Shown: in pieces, positions 1-5,183 of the stretch
Position numbering within the stretch: the stretch's first letter is position 1
How the letters are laid out: the number at the start of each line of letters is the position of its first letter
Origin: a virus
Taxonomy: Duplodnaviria; Heunggongvirae; Uroviricota; Caudoviricetes
Length of the DNA: 5,183 nt
Reading direction: 5' to 3' (one strand)
Virus record (IMG/VR): IMGVR_UViG_2778261571_000011
Span: 1-5,183 of that record
Position numbers and translations under genes: made by a program
Notes under the pieces: generated by a model
Told to the model about the DNA's origin: nothing
Databases searched by the model: none
The model's input: only the letters and a program-made list of their open reading frames with translations

Positions 1-309
1 ATGATTCTGACTCTGAATGATAAGCGCGAAATATCGCAAATAATCGCAAGTTTTACTGATGCAGATTACGAGCGAATCAACAGTGAAGTTGATCGCCTCT
101 GCAAACGTTGCGACCCAATAAGCGAAATGCTTCGCTCATATAAACCAGATGAACACACTAAGGACGCTATCGACTGGCTGGAAGATGATGACTGTAACTA
201 TCAGGAAAAAGCCGCTGAATGGTTCTGGGATGCAATAACCGAAAGAGTTAAGGCTGAATATGCCTTCGCAATATTCAAACGCAGACATATTTTTGGAGAA
301 GCTGCATGA
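1..309 (+). CDS. Hypothetical phage protein (102 aa), function unknown
   Basis: ORF begins at ATG at position 1, so the true start could lie upstream of the window. Its TGA stop (307-309) overlaps the recT ATG (306-308) as ATGA, implying translational coupling. No recognisable motif. Confidence 0.5.
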   Translation: MILTLNDKREISQIIASFTDADYERINSEVDRLCKRCDPISEMLRSYKPDEHTKDAIDWLEDDDCNYQEKAAEWFWDAITERVKAEYAFAIFKRRHIFGEAA

Positions 310-1217
310 GCAATATCGTTGAATTCGTTAAACAGCAGGAGCAGTTATTCTGCGGAGCATTGACTGAACAGACGGTGACATGGGCTAAGGAAAGCCAGTT
401 TGCAATTCAGTATTTCCAGAAAAACGATTACCTTGCTAAAACGGCACTGGCAAATCCAACCAGCGCACAGAACGCCATCATCAATGTTGCGGCGATCGGC
501 ATCACCTTAAACCCGGCCAGCAAACTGGCTTATCTGGTTCCGCGCGACGGCATGGTGTGCCTTGATATCAGTTATATGGGATTGCTCCATATTGCAATGG
601 AGTCTGGTGTTATCTCATGGGGTCAGGCAAAACTTGTTCATGCTAACGATACCTATGAGTCAAACGGGCTTGATAAAGCACCAACCCATAAATACAACGC
701 CTTCGGTGATCGTGGTGATATCGTTGGCGTTTACTGCACAGTTAAGACGCCAGCAGGTGATTATCTAACGGAAGAGATGAGTCTGGCTGAAATTGAGGCT
801 GTAAGGAAAACAAGCAAGGCGGCCTTCAGCGATAAAGGACCATGGGTAAATCACTGGAATGAGATGGCGCGAAAGACGGTCGTAAAGCGTGCAAGCAAGT
901 ATTGGCCTAAGGCATCACGTCTTGATAGTGCTATTCACGTACTAAACGAAGAAGAAGGTGTGTGGACTGAACCAGTTATGCCGCACAAATCAGAGGAAGA
1001 TATCCGCGAAGATGAACGGAAACGCCAGCAGGAAATAATGGAAAAAGCACAACTTCTTTGTGATGAAATGGCTCAGGCTGAAAACATGGATGATTTGAAG
1101 AGATATTTTGCAGAAGCATATCGCCTGACATCTGGAATGAAATTGCAGCAGAACGTACAAGCCATTTACATAGAATGCAAAGCGAAACTGGAGGTTGCCA
1201 GTGAGCAAACTGTATGA
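306..1217 (+). CDS. recT: RecT-family single-strand annealing recombinase (RecT/Red-beta superfamily)
   Basis: 303-aa ORF with GGAGA Shine-Dalgarno at 295-299, 6 nt before the ATG. The segment GPWVNHWNEMARKTVVKRASKYWP closely resembles the conserved core of Rac-prophage RecT as I recall it (GPWVTHWEEMAKKTAIRRLFKYLP). Size and acidic C-terminus fit RecT. Confidence 0.85.
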   Translation: MSNIVEFVKQQEQLFCGALTEQTVTWAKESQFAIQYFQKNDYLAKTALANPTSAQNAIINVAAIGITLNPASKLAYLVPRDGMVCLDISYMGLLHIAMESGVISWGQAKLVHANDTYESNGLDKAPTHKYNAFGDRGDIVGVYCTVKTPAGDYLTEEMSLAEIEAVRKTSKAAFSDKGPWVNHWNEMARKTVVKRASKYWPKASRLDSAIHVLNEEEGVWTEPVMPHKSEEDIREDERKRQQEIMEKAQLLCDEMAQAENMDDLKRYFAEAYRLTSGMKLQQNVQAIYIECKAKLEVASEQTV

Positions 1218-1683
1218 AATTGCCAATGAATACGCAAAATTGATGGATTCAGATTTAGAACCAGAGATGATTGCTGACACAATAGAAGGCATGGAAGGAG
1301 AATTTACCGATAAAATAGAACAACTTCTCGCCATTATTAAAAATGAATCTGGTTATGCTGAACGCCTCAAGGAAGAGGCAAAGTCACTGAATGAACGAGC
1401 AGCAGTAATTCAAAATAAGATTGACAGCATCAAATCATATATAGCGTCATCGCTTGAAATGGTTGGCAAGAAAAAGATTAGAGCAGGTATTCACCAGGTA
1501 ACAATCCGCAAACCGTCAGAAACTGTAGAAATCATCGACTCAAGTGCCCTTCCTCCTGAATACGTTGAGTTTGAAACGACAATTAAAGCCGACAAGTTGG
1601 CAATCAAGCACCAACTAAAAGCAGGAATAAATATCCCAGGCGCTCAACTCAAGGTTGGGAAACCTTCACTTCTTATCAAATAA
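1201..1683 (+). CDS. Probable Siphovirus Gp157-family protein (RecT-associated, function unknown)
   Basis: ORF-track frame 1195..1683. I favour the GTG start at 1201, which has a GGAGG Shine-Dalgarno at 1190-1194 and 6-nt spacing. It overlaps the recT 3-prime end by 17 nt. Coiled-coil-rich N-terminus and position directly after recT match the Gp157 family from memory; not verified by search. Confidence 0.6.
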   Translation: MSKLYEIANEYAKLMDSDLEPEMIADTIEGMEGEFTDKIEQLLAIIKNESGYAERLKEEAKSLNERAAVIQNKIDSIKSYIASSLEMVGKKKIRAGIHQVTIRKPSETVEIIDSSALPPEYVEFETTIKADKLAIKHQLKAGINIPGAQLKVGKPSLLIK

Positions 1684-1694
1684 CGGTATCGACT

Positions 1695-2009
1695 ATGAAA
1701 AAGACTCCATGGGAGAAATGGGAAGTCGATTTCTTGCGCGAAGTGGCGGCGACAATGCCAGTTGAAGTTATCGCTGAAAAACTGGAAAGGACTGAAAAAG
1801 CAGTAATGGCGAAAGCAACAAGGATTGGCGCTGACATTGTTAGCCGACTTCGTGGAAGACGATGGACAAGAGCCGAAGTATCACTTTTCGGTAAGTTCTC
1901 CGCAGAAGAAATAGCAATTGCAACCTGCCGCTCAATTTATTCAGTAAGAGCTATGCGATACAAGCTAAAAAAACTCGATGAAGAAAGAGCGGGCATACGA
2001 ATAAATTAA
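1695..2009 (+). CDS. Small putative DNA-binding protein with two tandem HTH-like repeats (104 aa)
   Basis: Two internal repeats, WEKWEVDFL...[23 protein letters not shown] and WTRAEVSLF...[22 protein letters not shown]. Each contains an E-[VI]-I-A-x-x-L-x-R-[TS]-x-x-[AS]-V motif resembling LuxR/sigma-70 region-4 or Myb-type recognition helices. Inference from pattern only. Confidence 0.55.
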
Positions 2010-2025
2010 AAAAGAGGAATTTACC

Positions 2026-2190
2026 ATGAGAGGACTTGCATACAATCCCGGCATTCTTCCGGCAGAAATGATTATTCGCCAACGCGTAAAGCCAATGCCA
2101 TCGAGAGAGGAATTGCTAAAGAGAAATTCTTTTCCGTCAGTGAATCAAAACAAATATCTGAATGCGATGTGGCGGAGTGGGAAAAAATGA
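2026..2190 (+). CDS. Small basic protein, 54 aa ([54 protein letters not shown]); absent from the ORF track
   Basis: ATG at 2026 with AGAGGA Shine-Dalgarno at 2013-2018, 7-nt spacing. It fills the only otherwise unexplained gap in the operon. Its TGA stop (2188-2190) overlaps the ATG (2187-2189) of the next gene as ATGA. Confidence 0.45.
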
Positions 2191-2648
2191 AACAAATGAC
2201 ACTAATTGAGATGGATGGATTTCTGAAAGGTAAATGCATCCCATGTGATTTAAAGGTTAACGAAACAAACGCTGAATATCTGGTGCGTAAGTTCGGTGAG
2301 CTTGAATCAAAACTGGAAACGGCGTTGCGGGAGTGTCGTTCTGCTGGAATCACGATTGATAACCTTGAGGCTAAATGCGCGAAGATGGCTGCAGAAAATA
2401 CCTCGCTTAAGCAATCTGAGAAGGAATTTAATGACTTTTGTCGTGAGGAGTTTAGCGAATGGGAAGATGATGTTACTGAAACCCCAGCCACCGATGCTTT
2501 TCTGGCTGAAATTGAACGCAAAGCAATCCGCAAGTTCATTAACAGCATTGAACACATCCTGCGTGACAAACTGTCTCCGTATGACACCGAAGAGATGCTT
2601 GAGGCTATGCGTATTTTTCTGGAAGAACAGGAAGGTGAGCAAAAATGA
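2187..2648 (+). CDS. Acidic coiled-coil protein (153 aa from ATG 2187), possibly ead/Ea22-like
   Basis: The ORF track starts at GTG 2169. I prefer ATG 2187 because of the ATGA coupling with the upstream small ORF. Glu/Lys-rich heptad-like sequence; the [12 protein letters not shown] segment is reminiscent of Ea22-family proteins, from weak memory. Confidence 0.6.
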
Positions 2649-2962
2649 CGATCACAAAACAACGTGTAGAAGAAATCATATCCCGTATTGAAATGTATGG
2701 GCATGGTGCCGGGTATACCGCTGATGAGGTTTATGACCTTGCTGTACTGGCGCTGAATTTATCAAATATCGCAAAACTCAAGCGATACGAGCTTGATATG
2801 GATGGTTGTGACTCGTTCGGTCAGGATTGTGGCGCTGACATGACTGAAGATTCTGATGGCGATTATGTCCTGTTTGATGACGTGGTTAAGTTGTTTGAGT
2901 TTGATACAACCACTCAGAAGATAGAAAGCCCAGCAAAGGAGGCAGCCAGTGAGCGAGATTGA
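2645..2962 (+). CDS. Small strongly acidic protein (105 aa); N-terminal module shared with the DUF551 protein
   Basis: ATG 2645 overlaps the upstream stop (ATGA at 2645-2648); AGGTGA Shine-Dalgarno at 2633-2638. By my count about 24 Asp+Glu against 10 Lys+Arg, with an Asp-rich stretch (DMDGCDSFGQDCGADMTEDSDGDYVLFDD). The N-terminus [23 protein letters not shown] parallels MTTITKERLLTIKQWRETYGPGS of the 4124..4657 protein. Confidence 0.6.
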   Translation: MTITKQRVEEIISRIEMYGHGAGYTADEVYDLAVLALNLSNIAKLKRYELDMDGCDSFGQDCGADMTEDSDGDYVLFDDVVKLFEFDTTTQKIESPAKEAASERD

Positions 2963-3356
2963 CTATCAGGTACTGCGTGAGGCGGCAGAGAAAGCCGGTG
3001 AAGATAAGTGGCAGGCTAAAAAAATAAATGGTGATTTTTTCGTTATTCGTCACGGTAGTTATACAAGACAGCATGGCTACACATCGTATCAACCCATTGC
3101 GGAGATTGATTGTAAGCAAGTCCGGGATTTTGTTGCCAAGGCTAATCCGGCTACCGTGCTGGAATTACTGGATGAACTGGAAGAAGCAAAAAAGCGCATT
3201 GCAGAACTGGAAGCGCGGGAAATACTGCTCCCGGAACGTAGCAGCATGCTTCATAGAACAGATTTTCACGAGGATTACCAAACGGTAATGGCATACAAAG
3301 TTTCTGAGGTCATCGCTGCAATCCGCGCCGCTGGCATTCGCATCAAAGGAGAGTGA
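2949..3356 (+). CDS. Probable ead/Ea22-like family protein (135 aa)
   Basis: GTG start at 2949 with AAGGAGG at 2936-2942, 6-nt spacing; overlaps the upstream gene by 14 nt. N-terminus MSEIDYQVLREAAEKAGEDKWQA and coiled-coil LLDELEEAKKRIAELEARE resemble Ea22-like prophage proteins from memory. Confidence 0.55.
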   Translation: MSEIDYQVLREAAEKAGEDKWQAKKINGDFFVIRHGSYTRQHGYTSYQPIAEIDCKQVRDFVAKANPATVLELLDELEEAKKRIAELEAREILLPERSSMLHRTDFHEDYQTVMAYKVSEVIAAIRAAGIRIKGE

Positions 3357-3357
3357 G

Positions 3358-4113
3358 ATGATTCACTACCACGGTGGGCCTATTACTCCTGATACGTGCG
3401 CAATGAGAGCATGGAAAGGGCGACATGCGTTTATCAGTTTTGCGCATTCAGGCCAGATCAATCTCGCGGCTGAATACTGTCAGTCGTTCGCGCTGGACAA
3501 CGGTGCATTCACCGCCTGGAAAGCAGCTGGCAAAAACAAAATCGACTGGAGCGATTACTACGAGTTTGTCGCTCGCTGGAAGAATCACCCAGGATTCGAT
3601 TTTGCCATTATCCCTGATGTTATTGATGGCGGAGAGGAAGAAAATGATGCGCTTCTGAATGAGTGGCCTCACGGAAAACTAGCTGGCGTTCCAGTGTGGC
3701 ACATGAATGAAAGTGACGAGCGATTTATTCATTTGTGCAATGAGTTTCCGCGAGTGGCTATCGGTAGTTGTGGCGACTATGACGTAAAGCGCCCAACTCT
3801 TGCGGTAGCCAGAATGAAAGACCTGATTCGTCACATTGTTGATGAGCATGGTCAGCCGGTTACGAAACTACATGGATTGCGCATGTTAAATCCGCTGATA
3901 TTCACAAAATTACCCTTAGCCAGCGCAGATAGTACGAACGTCGCTCGAAACATCGGTATTGATAAAGCCTGGTCTGGGGCTTATGCACCTGCAAGTAAAG
4001 AGACACGCGCAGCATTAATGGTAGAACGGATTGAGGCACACAATAGCCCTGGTTCTCTTGCGTATTGTGAACAACGCGACCGCTTTGAAATGCAATTGCA
4101 ACTAGCAGTTTAA
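3358..4113 (+). CDS. Candidate TGT-superfamily (DpdA-like) transglycosylase, 251 aa; otherwise hypothetical
   Basis: AGGAG Shine-Dalgarno at 3347-3351, 6 nt before ATG 3358. An ordered motif series matches the TGT TIM-barrel active site: LDNGAF (aa 46-51, cf. TDSGGY), IIPDVIDGG (aa 84-92, cf. MAFDEC), IGSCGDY (aa 135-141, cf. AVGGLAVGE), LHGLRML (aa 171-177, cf. LMGVGKP), and ADSTNVAR (aa 190-197, cf. DMFDCVLPTR with the same Asp-to-Arg spacing). No Cys/His zinc motif. Motif-level inference only. Confidence 0.6.
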   Translation: MIHYHGGPITPDTCAMRAWKGRHAFISFAHSGQINLAAEYCQSFALDNGAFTAWKAAGKNKIDWSDYYEFVARWKNHPGFDFAIIPDVIDGGEEENDALLNEWPHGKLAGVPVWHMNESDERFIHLCNEFPRVAIGSCGDYDVKRPTLAVARMKDLIRHIVDEHGQPVTKLHGLRMLNPLIFTKLPLASADSTNVARNIGIDKAWSGAYAPASKETRAALMVERIEAHNSPGSLAYCEQRDRFEMQLQLAV

Positions 4114-4123
4114 GGATTAACAA

Positions 4124-4657
4124 ATGACCACTATAACCAAAGAGCGACTGCTGACAATCAAGCAGTGGCGCGAAACATACGGACCTGGTAGCAACGTTGT
4201 ACTGCCAGCAGAAGAAGCGGAAGAACTGGCGCGGATTGCACTGGCATCGCTGGAAGCAGAGCCGGTGGCGTGGAAGGCAACCTTCACGCAAATTGACAAT
4301 GAATATAATACGTTCACTGCTCTGTATTCTGACAAAGCAGAAGTCGAACGGTGGGTGCGACTGCATGAAATAGCTGACTTTCGGGCAGATATAACACCGC
4401 TTTATACAGCCCAACCAGCGCCGGTAGCTCCGGATGGTTGGATAAGCTGTAGTGAGCGAATGCCTGAAAAGAACCAGAACGTGCTTATTTCGGTGAATTT
4501 CGATAGTGATCTGGTTGAGCCGCTAATATGCTCCGCACGCTATACCGGAAGCACCTTTCGGCGCGGAGATGCAACGATTAAGCCGGGTAATGGTATTGAG
4601 CAAGCAACTCACTGGATACCTCTACCGGAACCGCCTCAGGAGGTTAACCGTGGCTAA
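4124..4657 (+). CDS. DUF551 domain-containing phage protein (177 aa)
   Basis: AAGGA Shine-Dalgarno at 4112-4116 overlapping the upstream TAA stop, 7 nt before the ATG. The C-terminal region WISCSERMPEKNQNVLISV...ATHWIPLPEPPQ matches the hallmark of DUF551 from enterobacterial prophages. Confidence 0.75.
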   Translation: MTTITKERLLTIKQWRETYGPGSNVVLPAEEAEELARIALASLEAEPVAWKATFTQIDNEYNTFTALYSDKAEVERWVRLHEIADFRADITPLYTAQPAPVAPDGWISCSERMPEKNQNVLISVNFDSDLVEPLICSARYTGSTFRRGDATIKPGNGIEQATHWIPLPEPPQEVNRG

Positions 4658-4719
4658 CCTGCAACTTGCCGTAAAAGGTGAATAACAATCCTCGCACTCG
4701 CGTGGATTTCTTTTATCTG

Positions 4720-4745
4720 AACTCGCTACGGCGAGTTTTGTTTTA
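4720..4745 (+). terminator. Candidate Rho-independent terminator ending the recT-to-DUF551 operon
   Basis: Perfect 7-bp stem AACTCGC / GCGAGTT (4720-4726 and 4731-4737) with a TACG loop, followed by the T-rich tract TTTGTTTTA. It lies 63 nt after the DUF551 stop. Confidence 0.45.
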
Positions 4746-4757
4746 TGGAGATGATAA

Positions 4758-4925
4758 ATGCACTTCCGAGTCACAGGTGAATGGAATGGAGAGTCATTCA
4801 ACAGGGTTATCGAAGCAGAGGACATCAACGACTGCTATAACCACTGGATGATATGGGCGCAGATAGCGCATGCAGACGTAACCAATATTCGAATTGAAGA
4901 ACTGAAAGAACACAAAAACGCCTGA
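4758..4925 (+). CDS. Small ORF, 55 aa (MHFRVTGEWNGESFNRVIEAEDINDCYNHWMIWAQIAHADVTNIRIEELKEHKNA); absent from the ORF track
   Basis: ATG at 4758 preceded by GGAG at 4747-4750, 7-nt spacing. It has no internal stops and is bracketed by two hairpin plus T-tract structures. Coding status is uncertain. Confidence 0.4.
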   Translation: MHFRVTGEWNGESFNRVIEAEDINDCYNHWMIWAQIAHADVTNIRIEELKEHKNA

Positions 4926-4937
4926 TGGCGGTTTTTT
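4914..4937 (+). terminator. Weaker terminator-like hairpin spanning the small-ORF stop codon
   Basis: AAAAACGCC (4914-4922), TGAT loop, GGCGG (4927-4931), then TTTTTT (4932-4937). Only 4 G-C pairs plus a bulged A-T extension; it might instead be part of an att arm. Confidence 0.3.
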
Positions 4938-4947
4938 ATTGCCTGAT

Positions 4948-4963
4948 TTGCAGGTTCGATTCC
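4948..4963 (+). other. Orphan tRNA T-arm fragment TTGCAGGTTCGATTCC; candidate integrase crossover core (att core)
   Basis: GCAGG (5-prime T-stem), TTCGATT (canonical T-loop) and CC, with no complementary 3-prime T-stem, acceptor stem or CCA following. From memory the 16 nt equal the matching stretch of E. coli tRNA-Arg(CCU) argW, the KplE1 integration target. Confidence 0.45.
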
Positions 4964-4982
4964 CTATTCGGAGATAGCACTC

Positions 4983-5183
4983 ATGCAACACGAACTACAG
5001 CCTGATTCACTGGTTGATTTGAAATTCATCATGGCTGATACTGGCTTCGGTAAAACCTTCATCTATGACCGGATTAAGTCCGGCGACCTGCCAAAAGCCA
5101 AAGTTATCCACGGACGCGCAAGATGGTTATATCGTGACCATTGTGAATTCAAAAATAAGCTCTTAAGCCGCGCTAATGGGTAA
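4983..5183 (+). CDS. torI: Winged-helix excisionase / recombination directionality factor (Xis/TorI-like, 66 aa)
   Basis: GGAGA Shine-Dalgarno at 4970-4974, 8 nt before the ATG. The core TFIYDRIKSGDLPKAKVIHGRARWLY parallels lambda Xis (TVRRWVRECRIFPPPVKDGREYLF). The 66-aa length and N-terminus MQHELQPDSLVDLKF match my recollection of TorI of prophage KplE1; the symbol is tentative. Confidence 0.75.
   Translation: MQHELQPDSLVDLKFIMADTGFGKTFIYDRIKSGDLPKAKVIHGRARWLYRDHCEFKNKLLSRANG

Follow-up and report, generated by a model that had tools for sequence, protein, structure and literature searches.

The window analysed here is the whole of a 5,183-nucleotide (nt) stretch, positions 1 to 5,183 of the IMG/VR virus record IMGVR_UViG_2778261571_000011 (Caudoviricetes). 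Its + strand carries lambdoid or P22-like early-left genes (RecT, Gp157, Ead/Ea22, and DUF551), and its last gene is a 66-residue open reading frame (ORF) at 4983–5183, at whose stop codon the window stops exactly. Shortly before this ORF lies a 16-mer, TTGCAGGTTCGATTCC, that is identical to part of the tRNA gene argW. The subject of this report is that segment and, in particular, the 10-nt box at its 3′ end, which is conserved across genera and may serve as an operator in the leader of the ORF.

The 66-residue ORF matches PDB entry 1Z4H, 'Tor inhibition protein', over its full length (residues 1–66, E 7e-43), and it carries the annotation torI in VE-F10, NU14, K-12, and thousands of E. coli genomes. 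As judged from these matches it is TorI, the excisionase, or recombination directionality factor (RDF), of the recombination module of KplE1, HK620, Sf6, CUS-3, and Kapi1, in agreement with the original prediction, which had called the ORF an excisionase. The nearest chromosomes, exemplified by VE-F10, are 99.8% identical over 4700–5183 and have dsdC directly 3′ of torI; the nearest phages are the P22-like podoviruses HF4s, N7, Louie, Kapi1, Sf6, and HK620. Besides the TorI-type RDF, the other marks of the KplE1/HK620/Sf6 module are found in VE-F10, K-12, Sf6, and HK620, where a 16-nt core from the 3′ end of argW follows torI and intS lies across attP, the phage attachment site. Homology identifies the window as the right-hand, attR-side terminus of a P22-like prophage that is integrated at argW and has the published torI–attP–intS module. 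The principal features of the torI leader are as follows.

4919–4937, + strand: terminator-like hairpin (CGCC TGAT GGCG) followed by a T run, from folding.
4948–4963, + strand: the 16-mer TTGCAGGTTCGATTCC, identical to argW nt 46–61, from the sequence match.
4954–4963, + strand: the conserved box GTTCGATTCC, consensus GTTCGATTnC, starting with the pentamer GTTCG, from alignment.
4966–4970, + strand: a further pentamer of degenerate form, ATTCG, 12 nt beyond the one in the box; it overlaps the ribosome-binding site, from comparison of leaders.
4970–4973, + strand: Shine–Dalgarno sequence (GGAG) of torI, from the sequence; CGGAG is kept in relatives.
4983–5183, + strand: torI, the 66-residue RDF.

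The 16-mer occurs once in the window, and 19 nt separate it from the torI ATG at 4983. It reproduces exactly nt 46–61 of K-12 argW, the gene for tRNA-Arg(CCU) (L006, 555–570), and is made up of two bases of the variable region (TT), the 5′ strand of the T stem (GCAGG), the T loop (TTCGATT), and CC of the 3′ stem; identity to argW breaks off at both edges. The truncated T arm, its placement 19 nt before the excisionase gene, and the guess that argW was the tRNA gene concerned had all been put forward in the original prediction, and comparison with the host tRNA gene upholds them. By our estimates, an exact argW 16-mer would arise by chance in 5.2 kb with a probability of about 1e-4, and one from any E. 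coli tRNA gene with a probability of about 0.007. K-12 and NU14 each contain exactly two copies, one in argW and one before torI, where shuffled sequences lead one to expect 0.

Homologues of TorI were gathered from other genera and from viral contigs, and their leaders were compared. The argW 3′-end core lies about 75 nt after torI in 20 of the 22 cross-genus genome loci examined, in some with one or two changes; it is missing at a Proteus locus, where int adjoins torI, and at one Arsenophonus locus. The leaders of many lineages contain (C)AGGTTCGATT(C/T)C at 19–29 nt before the ATG. Loci bearing this box are found in Enterobacter, Citrobacter, Serratia, Pantoea, Edwardsiella, Pantoea stewartii, and several IMG/VR types. 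Upstream of the box the DNA is unrelated among lineages, and downstream the region of the ribosome-binding site alone is partly alike. Across 17 aligned box copies drawn from 12 leader types (A1), GTTCGATT and the last C never vary, making nine invariant positions of the ten, while in the same lineages the third positions of conserved torI codons are 42–74% identical to the window, with an average of about 58%. The box is therefore under purifying selection. Tandem boxes occur as pairs in L130, L131, and L134 (period 16) and in L127 (period 13), and as a triplet in L012. Matches to the pentamer in the leaders number 72 on the coding strand and 0 on the opposite strand, a count that is descriptive only, the leaders being related. 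On this comparative evidence the box is a conserved cis element that travels with torI.

Could such an element be a functionless relic that hitchhikes with torI? It might have been captured once from argW by illegitimate recombination, or been left behind at the insertion of torI, by a route in which torI entered a longer tRNA-like attP. The copied piece is indeed the exact tRNA segment that lies beside the core, and the match to argW is extended differently by lineage (TTGCAGG in E. coli, ...TTCCTG in Serratia and Pantoea). Because GCCTG directly abuts GGAG in HK140 and in a Dryocola relative, the box region resembles an insert of about 25 nt between the two, and some lineages have no box. 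A relic, however, would hardly keep nine of ten positions invariant beside synonymous sites that have drifted so far; decay is seen at the edges only, and tandem duplications have been retained. This explanation is improbable.

The original prediction went further and took the 16-mer for the crossover core itself, in an attP-like context or at a tandem-prophage junction. Published work places the core elsewhere. Two copies of a 16-nt core, CTGCAGGGGACACCAT, from the 3′ end of argW flank the KplE1 prophage; the attL and attR of this prophage were used with IntS, TorI, and IHF for recombination in vitro, and the same recombination module is reported for HK620, Sf6, and CUS-3 (PMC2951348). In Kapi1 there is a 17-bp duplication at the argW 3′ end, the corresponding attB was deleted as a test, and attP lies between xis and int, so that the two genes come to stand at opposite ends of the prophage (PMC8787464). 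In K-12, VE-F10, Sf6, and HK620, CTGCAGGGGACACCAT is found about 75 nt 3′ of the torI stop, beyond the end of the window, and in the nearest genomes dsdC follows it. Within argW, CTGCAGGGGACACCAT starts at the last base of the 16-mer, so that the two are adjacent pieces of the tRNA; in the phage, torI separates them and the distance is about 235 bp. The 16-mer therefore has phage DNA on both flanks because it lies inside the P arm, about 235 bp to the left of the core, and the contexts first proposed for it do not apply. The remark that the layout is unlike that of lambda was sound: the element integrates at argW with attP between xis (torI) and int, an arrangement that is already published for KplE1, HK620, Sf6, and Kapi1. 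Prophage boundaries elsewhere, with an unrelated core, had been named as the outcome contrary to a crossover at the 16-mer. That contrary outcome is what is seen, although the true core is the adjacent piece of the same tRNA.

It is easy to see how the 16-mer comes to be read as a core, as it also was in the GenBank record of CUS-3. The copies in argW and before torI form a perfect direct repeat of 16 bp that brackets nearly the whole prophage, and in K-12 and NU14 it is present at both element ends and in attB. The CUS-3 record CP000711 both begins and ends with it (L001, 3249–3264; L002, 1–16), and in NU14, where the attR core lacks one G, it is the sole perfect repeat. Yet the 16-mer is not at the junction of element and host. 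Phage DNA runs about 294 nt further to the right, with torI, the arm-type repeats (GGGTAAAAT), and the real core CTGCAGGGGACACCAT preceding the host dsdC DNA. A fused junction of the 16-mer and P′ is absent as one piece from the phage records in the junction search; in all nine phages among the matches listed, the torI segment (about 294 nt) splits the two junction halves, and a search for an attP lacking torI found none. The excision scar that crossover at the 16-mer predicts, argW–16-mer–torI, occurs in 0 of 5426 complete E. coli genomes. Furthermore, the attR used in vitro, which recombines, is a 135-bp fragment whose primer attR-IHF2 lies in the 3′ end of torI (PMC3509656). It excludes the 16-mer, which is thus not needed for recombination in vitro. 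Together with the published cores of KplE1 and Kapi1, these results leave crossover at the 16-mer very improbable, and close to refuted.

The labels 'attL core' and 'attR core' that the CUS-3 record gives to the 16-mer have a practical consequence. In NU14, a CUS-3-type lysogen (L007, 41917–42240), torI and the attR core follow the 16-mer labelled 'attR core' and precede dsdC; the CUS-3 record thus appears to be about 300 bp short. The NU14 attR core, with one G lost, reads CTGCAGGGACACCAT. This 1-bp deletion may explain why the other repeat was chosen in the CUS-3 record, and it might impair excision. A 16-bp tRNA repeat is a trap for the definition of prophage boundaries, in this instance apparently leaving the excisionase and the real attR outside the CUS-3 'genome'. 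Many IMG/VR prophage contigs (for example L035, L036, L039, and L041) end on the torI stop codon, as the window does at 5183; such prophage ends appear to be trimmed at the last gene, with loss of the attR core about 75 nt beyond.

The box lies between an intrinsic terminator and the ribosome-binding site of torI, and it is most likely a regulatory binding site. We tentatively favor, at somewhat less than an even chance, the reading that it acts as an operator for torI, most likely a putative site for TorI itself, through which synthesis of the RDF would be subject to feedback. In such a scheme torI would be expressed solely by read-through of the terminator, whether by antiterminated pL transcription or by loss of Rho. 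TorI bound to the box and to the adjacent pentamer over the Shine–Dalgarno sequence would then limit its own synthesis, and in the mRNA the box may pair weakly with that sequence (UUCC with GGAG).

The case for TorI as the likeliest binder is drawn from its sites at attL, which have GTTCG, GATCG, or GTCCG cores arranged as same-strand direct repeats, and from its repression of the intS promoter. Five 8-mers have been mapped in attL, CAGTTCGC, CAGTCCGC, CAGTTCGT, TGGTTCGC, and CAGATCGT, and changing the pentamers GTTCG, GATCG, and GTCCG to CAAGC in the I3–I5 block abolished TorI repression of PintS (PMC2951348). The pentamer is present in the box, relatives having the 8-mers CAGTTCGA and CAGTCCGG. 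Most leader types have two or three repeats, all on the top strand, and are in this respect same-strand direct repeats as well. In many leaders a second pentamer follows 12 nt on, over the Shine–Dalgarno sequence; it reads ATTCG in the window and GTTCG or GTCCG in other lineages, where it falls within CAGTCCGG, TAGTTCGG, or CTGTTCGG (L128, L133, L012, and L119). With a matrix made from the five mapped 8-mers, 10352 window positions were scanned. On that scale the two sites of L128 and that of L012 would rank 5th, 13th, and 15th in the window, and that of L119 would rank 30th. A precedent for an RDF that doubles as a transcriptional regulator is Apl of phage 186 (PMC7498355).

Several observations weigh against a TorI operator. 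By the same matrix the first of the two sites in the window itself, AGGTTCGA, comes no higher than 129th of the 10352, and the second, CTATTCGG, 250th. The repeats in the leaders are spaced by 12–16 bp and not by one helical turn, nor by the 10 or 20 of the mapped sites. In the mapped sites GTTCG is followed by C or T, so that the invariant ATTnC of the box goes beyond the specificity of TorI. The second pentamer is missing from Citrobacter-type and Serratia-type leaders. The box itself is missing from lineages of the same layout (L016, L018, L019, L025–L029, and L031); since these retain the torI–core arrangement, the box must be dispensable. It is also missing from the Proteus-type leader, in which torI is convergent with int next to argW. 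In Proteus hauseri (L027, 2992–4567) and in L213–L217, the torI homologue is convergent with a 385-residue ORF and overlaps its 3′ end; this ORF, which is of the size of IntS but of unverified family, adjoins a complete tRNA-Arg(CCU).

The invariant ATTnC tail matches the B arm of attB, which makes core-type binding by IntS a serious rival. The box would in that case be an IntS half-site, a copy of the argW T-loop sequence GTTCGATTCC from attB, and the integrase rather than TorI would gate torI or help to build a larger complex. The box is in fact the 10 bp that abut the core in attB, and its tail fits the tRNA and not the TorI sites. In other genera the C side of attP often also has TTCGATGT beside the core, and GGTTCGAT stands amid arm-type repeats before other P4-like int genes. 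The C sites of the E. coli phages, however, read GTAGATGTC, so that IntS tolerates changes at positions where the box is invariant; the intB gene at leuX has GGTTCGAT although the leuX T loop is GGTTCGAG; and recombination in vitro proceeds without the box. We regard an IntS half-site as unlikely.

The sequences near argW cores deserve description in their own right. The C side of attP in other genera (L012–L031, directly left of the argW core) has the form (A/G)TTCGATGT-N-TGCAGGGGACACCA, a degenerate copy of the T loop with three conserved mismatches to argW. In many genomes (L032, L197, L010, L119, L206, L018, and L031, about 200–300 nt after the argW core) a second, different P4-like int gene follows the torI-side core, and such arrangements indicate tandem islands at argW. 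The GGTTCGAT box lies between direct and inverted arm-type repeats in these tandem islands and before K-12 intB at leuX (L275, 430–460); intA at ssrA has no such box. The disagreement between the leuX T loop and the intB box hints that the motif is generic to the module and not simply copied from the tRNA, but as a test of whether GGTTCGAT tracks the target tRNA the result is suggestive and not decisive. A bolder version of the operator reading holds that the box deliberately mimics the argW T-loop DNA beside the crossover site of attB and attL, that whichever protein (TorI or IntS) reads this T loop in recombination also gates excisionase synthesis through the box, and that a general 'T-loop box' regulatory code exists. 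We consider this doubtful; if it were true, the GGTTCGAT boxes that precede P4-like int genes (intB at leuX among them) would be further instances of it in tRNA-targeting islands.

A T-arm sequence in a leader transcript, 6–8 nt before the Shine–Dalgarno sequence, might act as RNA instead, as a mimic of the T arm or as an anti-Shine–Dalgarno element that controls translation or processing of torI. Pairing of UUCC with GGAG and of UUCGA with UCGGA is possible in most lineages. Against this, T-stem pairing is kept in 51.8% of cells versus 51.0% in shuffles; the inner GG/CC pairs alone persist, the three outer pairs being unpaired in 11–13 of 17 sequences. The alternative hairpin onto the Shine–Dalgarno sequence shows no covariation, and the leader folds no better than shuffled sequences (z = −0.89). 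No Rfam family scores above threshold, an ARAGORN scan of the window found no tRNA, and an anti-Shine–Dalgarno role would not need GUUCGA. Control at the RNA level is thus quite unlikely. Below threshold, two full-length Rfam matches were noted, at 4886–4941 (+) and 4906–5033 (−), to the Salmonella small RNAs STnc420 (24.6 bits, E 0.012–0.016, varying with the stretch searched) and STnc130 (30.4 bits, E 0.009–0.011). Both are anchored on the A run, hairpin, and T run of the terminator.

The remaining features of the region, among them a site to which a promoter function has been attributed, are listed here.

4758–4925, + strand: the last early-left ORF, 55 residues, with no Pfam family; its TGA stop lies inside the terminator loop.
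4932–4947, + strand: the shared linker TTTTTTATTGCCTG, a mosaic boundary, from the limits of homology.
4939–4951, + strand: TTGC-CTGAT-TTGC, annotated in HK620 as the cII-binding site of a predicted pI promoter.
4990–4997, − strand: TAGTTCGT, the best match to the TorI matrix in the window, opposite torI codons 3–5.
5000–5007, + strand: the second copy of GCCTGATT, in torI codons 6–9 (CAG CCT GAT TCA), from the sequence.

The annotation of HK620, copied to Sf6, would place the box within a cII-dependent pI promoter that serves integration. In HK620, TTGCCTGATTTGC is labelled 'promoter, phage integration' and as a binding site for 'cII protein', Sf6 has pI annotated, and 13 nt beyond the second TTGC there is a weak −10 element (TATTCG). 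At this position of the leader an Arsenophonus relative has TTGCGTGTAATTG, which resembles the cII box of lambda pI and counts in favor of the promoter. The spacing of the TTGC tetrads is nonetheless N5, whereas the cII and C1 sites of lambda and P22 have N6, and a conserved TTGC-N6-TTGC was not found at the −35 region. K-12 and many E. coli loci have TTAC in place of the first tetrad, and other genera lack the second, yet the box stays invariant, so that such a promoter does not account for its conservation. The predicted start would land past the Shine–Dalgarno sequence, and a scan for sigma-70 promoters found none. A cII promoter that drives an excisionase would, moreover, oppose integration, and the prediction dates from a time when hkaC was still annotated as 'unknown'. 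A pI promoter at this site is decidedly improbable. In Arsenophonus nasoniae (L023), about 40 nt before the torI homologue, the leader reads TTGCGTGAGATTTGCGTGTAATTGAG, which closely resembles the lambda pI cII box (TTGCGTGTAATTGC); there may be a cII-type promoter before the RDF in that lineage.

The terminator that precedes the box escaped a consensus terminator scan because its stem has only four pairs. An A run stands before the hairpin, so that termination in both directions is possible, and the homologous hairpin of HK140 is annotated as a 'rho-independent terminator'. In many lineages the box comes after a hairpin and T run, with hairpin sequences that differ from one lineage to another; no such element precedes it in the Serratia, Edwardsiella/P. 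stewartii, L130-type, and Pantoea L017 leaders. The 55-residue ORF that ends in the hairpin also precedes the 16-mer in CUS-3, HF4s, and HK140. In HK140 and Gally, which have other int/xis modules, homology to the window ends at 4941–4945, and in K-12 it begins at about 4932. These limits assign the box to the torI module and make the linker TTTTTATTGCCTG the mosaic joint; Sf6 has a 'bsq2 boundary sequence' annotated there.

Three further observations concern torI itself. The best matrix match, TAGTTCGT, is not kept in other genera, relatives encoding QHQL or THNM at this point; the third-best match in the window, CAGGTCGC at 5083–5090 (−), also lies within torI. The first probable arm-type repeat for IntS, GGGTAA(AAT), begins at 5178 in the 3′ end of the gene. 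The 8-mer GCCTGATT is present at 4941–4948 and 5000–5007, where the original prediction had placed it, but the suggestion that it binds a protein is to be rejected. In the window 0.23 copies are expected, and two or more were reached in 5 of 200 shuffles; since about two local 8-mer repeats of this kind are expected, by our estimate, in any 5-kb window, the recurrence is at chance level. The first copy combines the end of the conserved linker after the terminator (GCCTG) with the beginning of the box region, and the second is under coding constraint. An 11-mer, CAGCCTGATTC, begins 15 nt after the torI ATG (4998–5008) and also appears 11 nt after the ATG of an unrelated small gene of HK140 (L276, 6820–6850), which follows the same terminator and is convergent with the HK140 integrase gene; the 11-mer lies in another reading frame there. 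This sharing may be due to chance.

The module, its core, the xis–attP–int layout, and TorI are all published, and two annotations of the stretch discussed here already exist, one as pI and the other as an att core. Not found described are the maintenance of the box across genera independently of its flanks, its occasional duplication, and its coincidence with the tRNA segment that abuts the core. On the view given in PMC2951348, it is chiefly by way of RDF expression that this module's excision is controlled. The conserved cis element that lies between terminator and torI thus offers a concrete and cheap target for learning how that control operates. Should the box prove to be an operator for TorI or IntS, it would add a feedback loop to a well-studied model, though it would open no new field.

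Comparison with known systems sets the box in perspective. Like the tRNA-derived att cores used by tyrosine integrases, the 16-mer is an exact tRNA fragment present both in the tRNA gene, argW, and inside the element; it differs from them in that it is not the junction of phage and host, lies outside the minimal attR, and forms no junction in circular phage genomes. Small winged-helix RDFs that bind direct repeats both at att and in a promoter or leader include Apl of 186, Cox of P2, Vis of P4, and TorI on PintS. These systems exert feedback on recombination genes and act at mapped promoters, whereas self-regulation of torI is here a proposal only and the interval from the terminator to torI has no known promoter. 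The TorI sites I1–I5 on KplE1 attL share with the box a GTTCG core, an arrangement in same-strand direct repeats, and a position over the expression signals of a gene, and in some lineages the second leader sites match CAGT(T/C)CG. The box differs from I1–I5 in the extra G before the core, the invariant ATTnC after it, and the spacing of 12–16 bp as compared with 10 or 20. The KplE1 (CPS-53)/HK620/Sf6/CUS-3/Kapi1 module has, like the window, the 66-residue TorI, and has attP between xis and int. Nothing material separates it from the window, which is cut at the torI stop so that core, IHF site, and int fall outside. In the mosaic of their upstream early-left genes K-12, Sf6, and HK620 differ from the window, but the torI leader, including the 16-mer, is the same in K-12, Sf6, HK620, and CUS-3.

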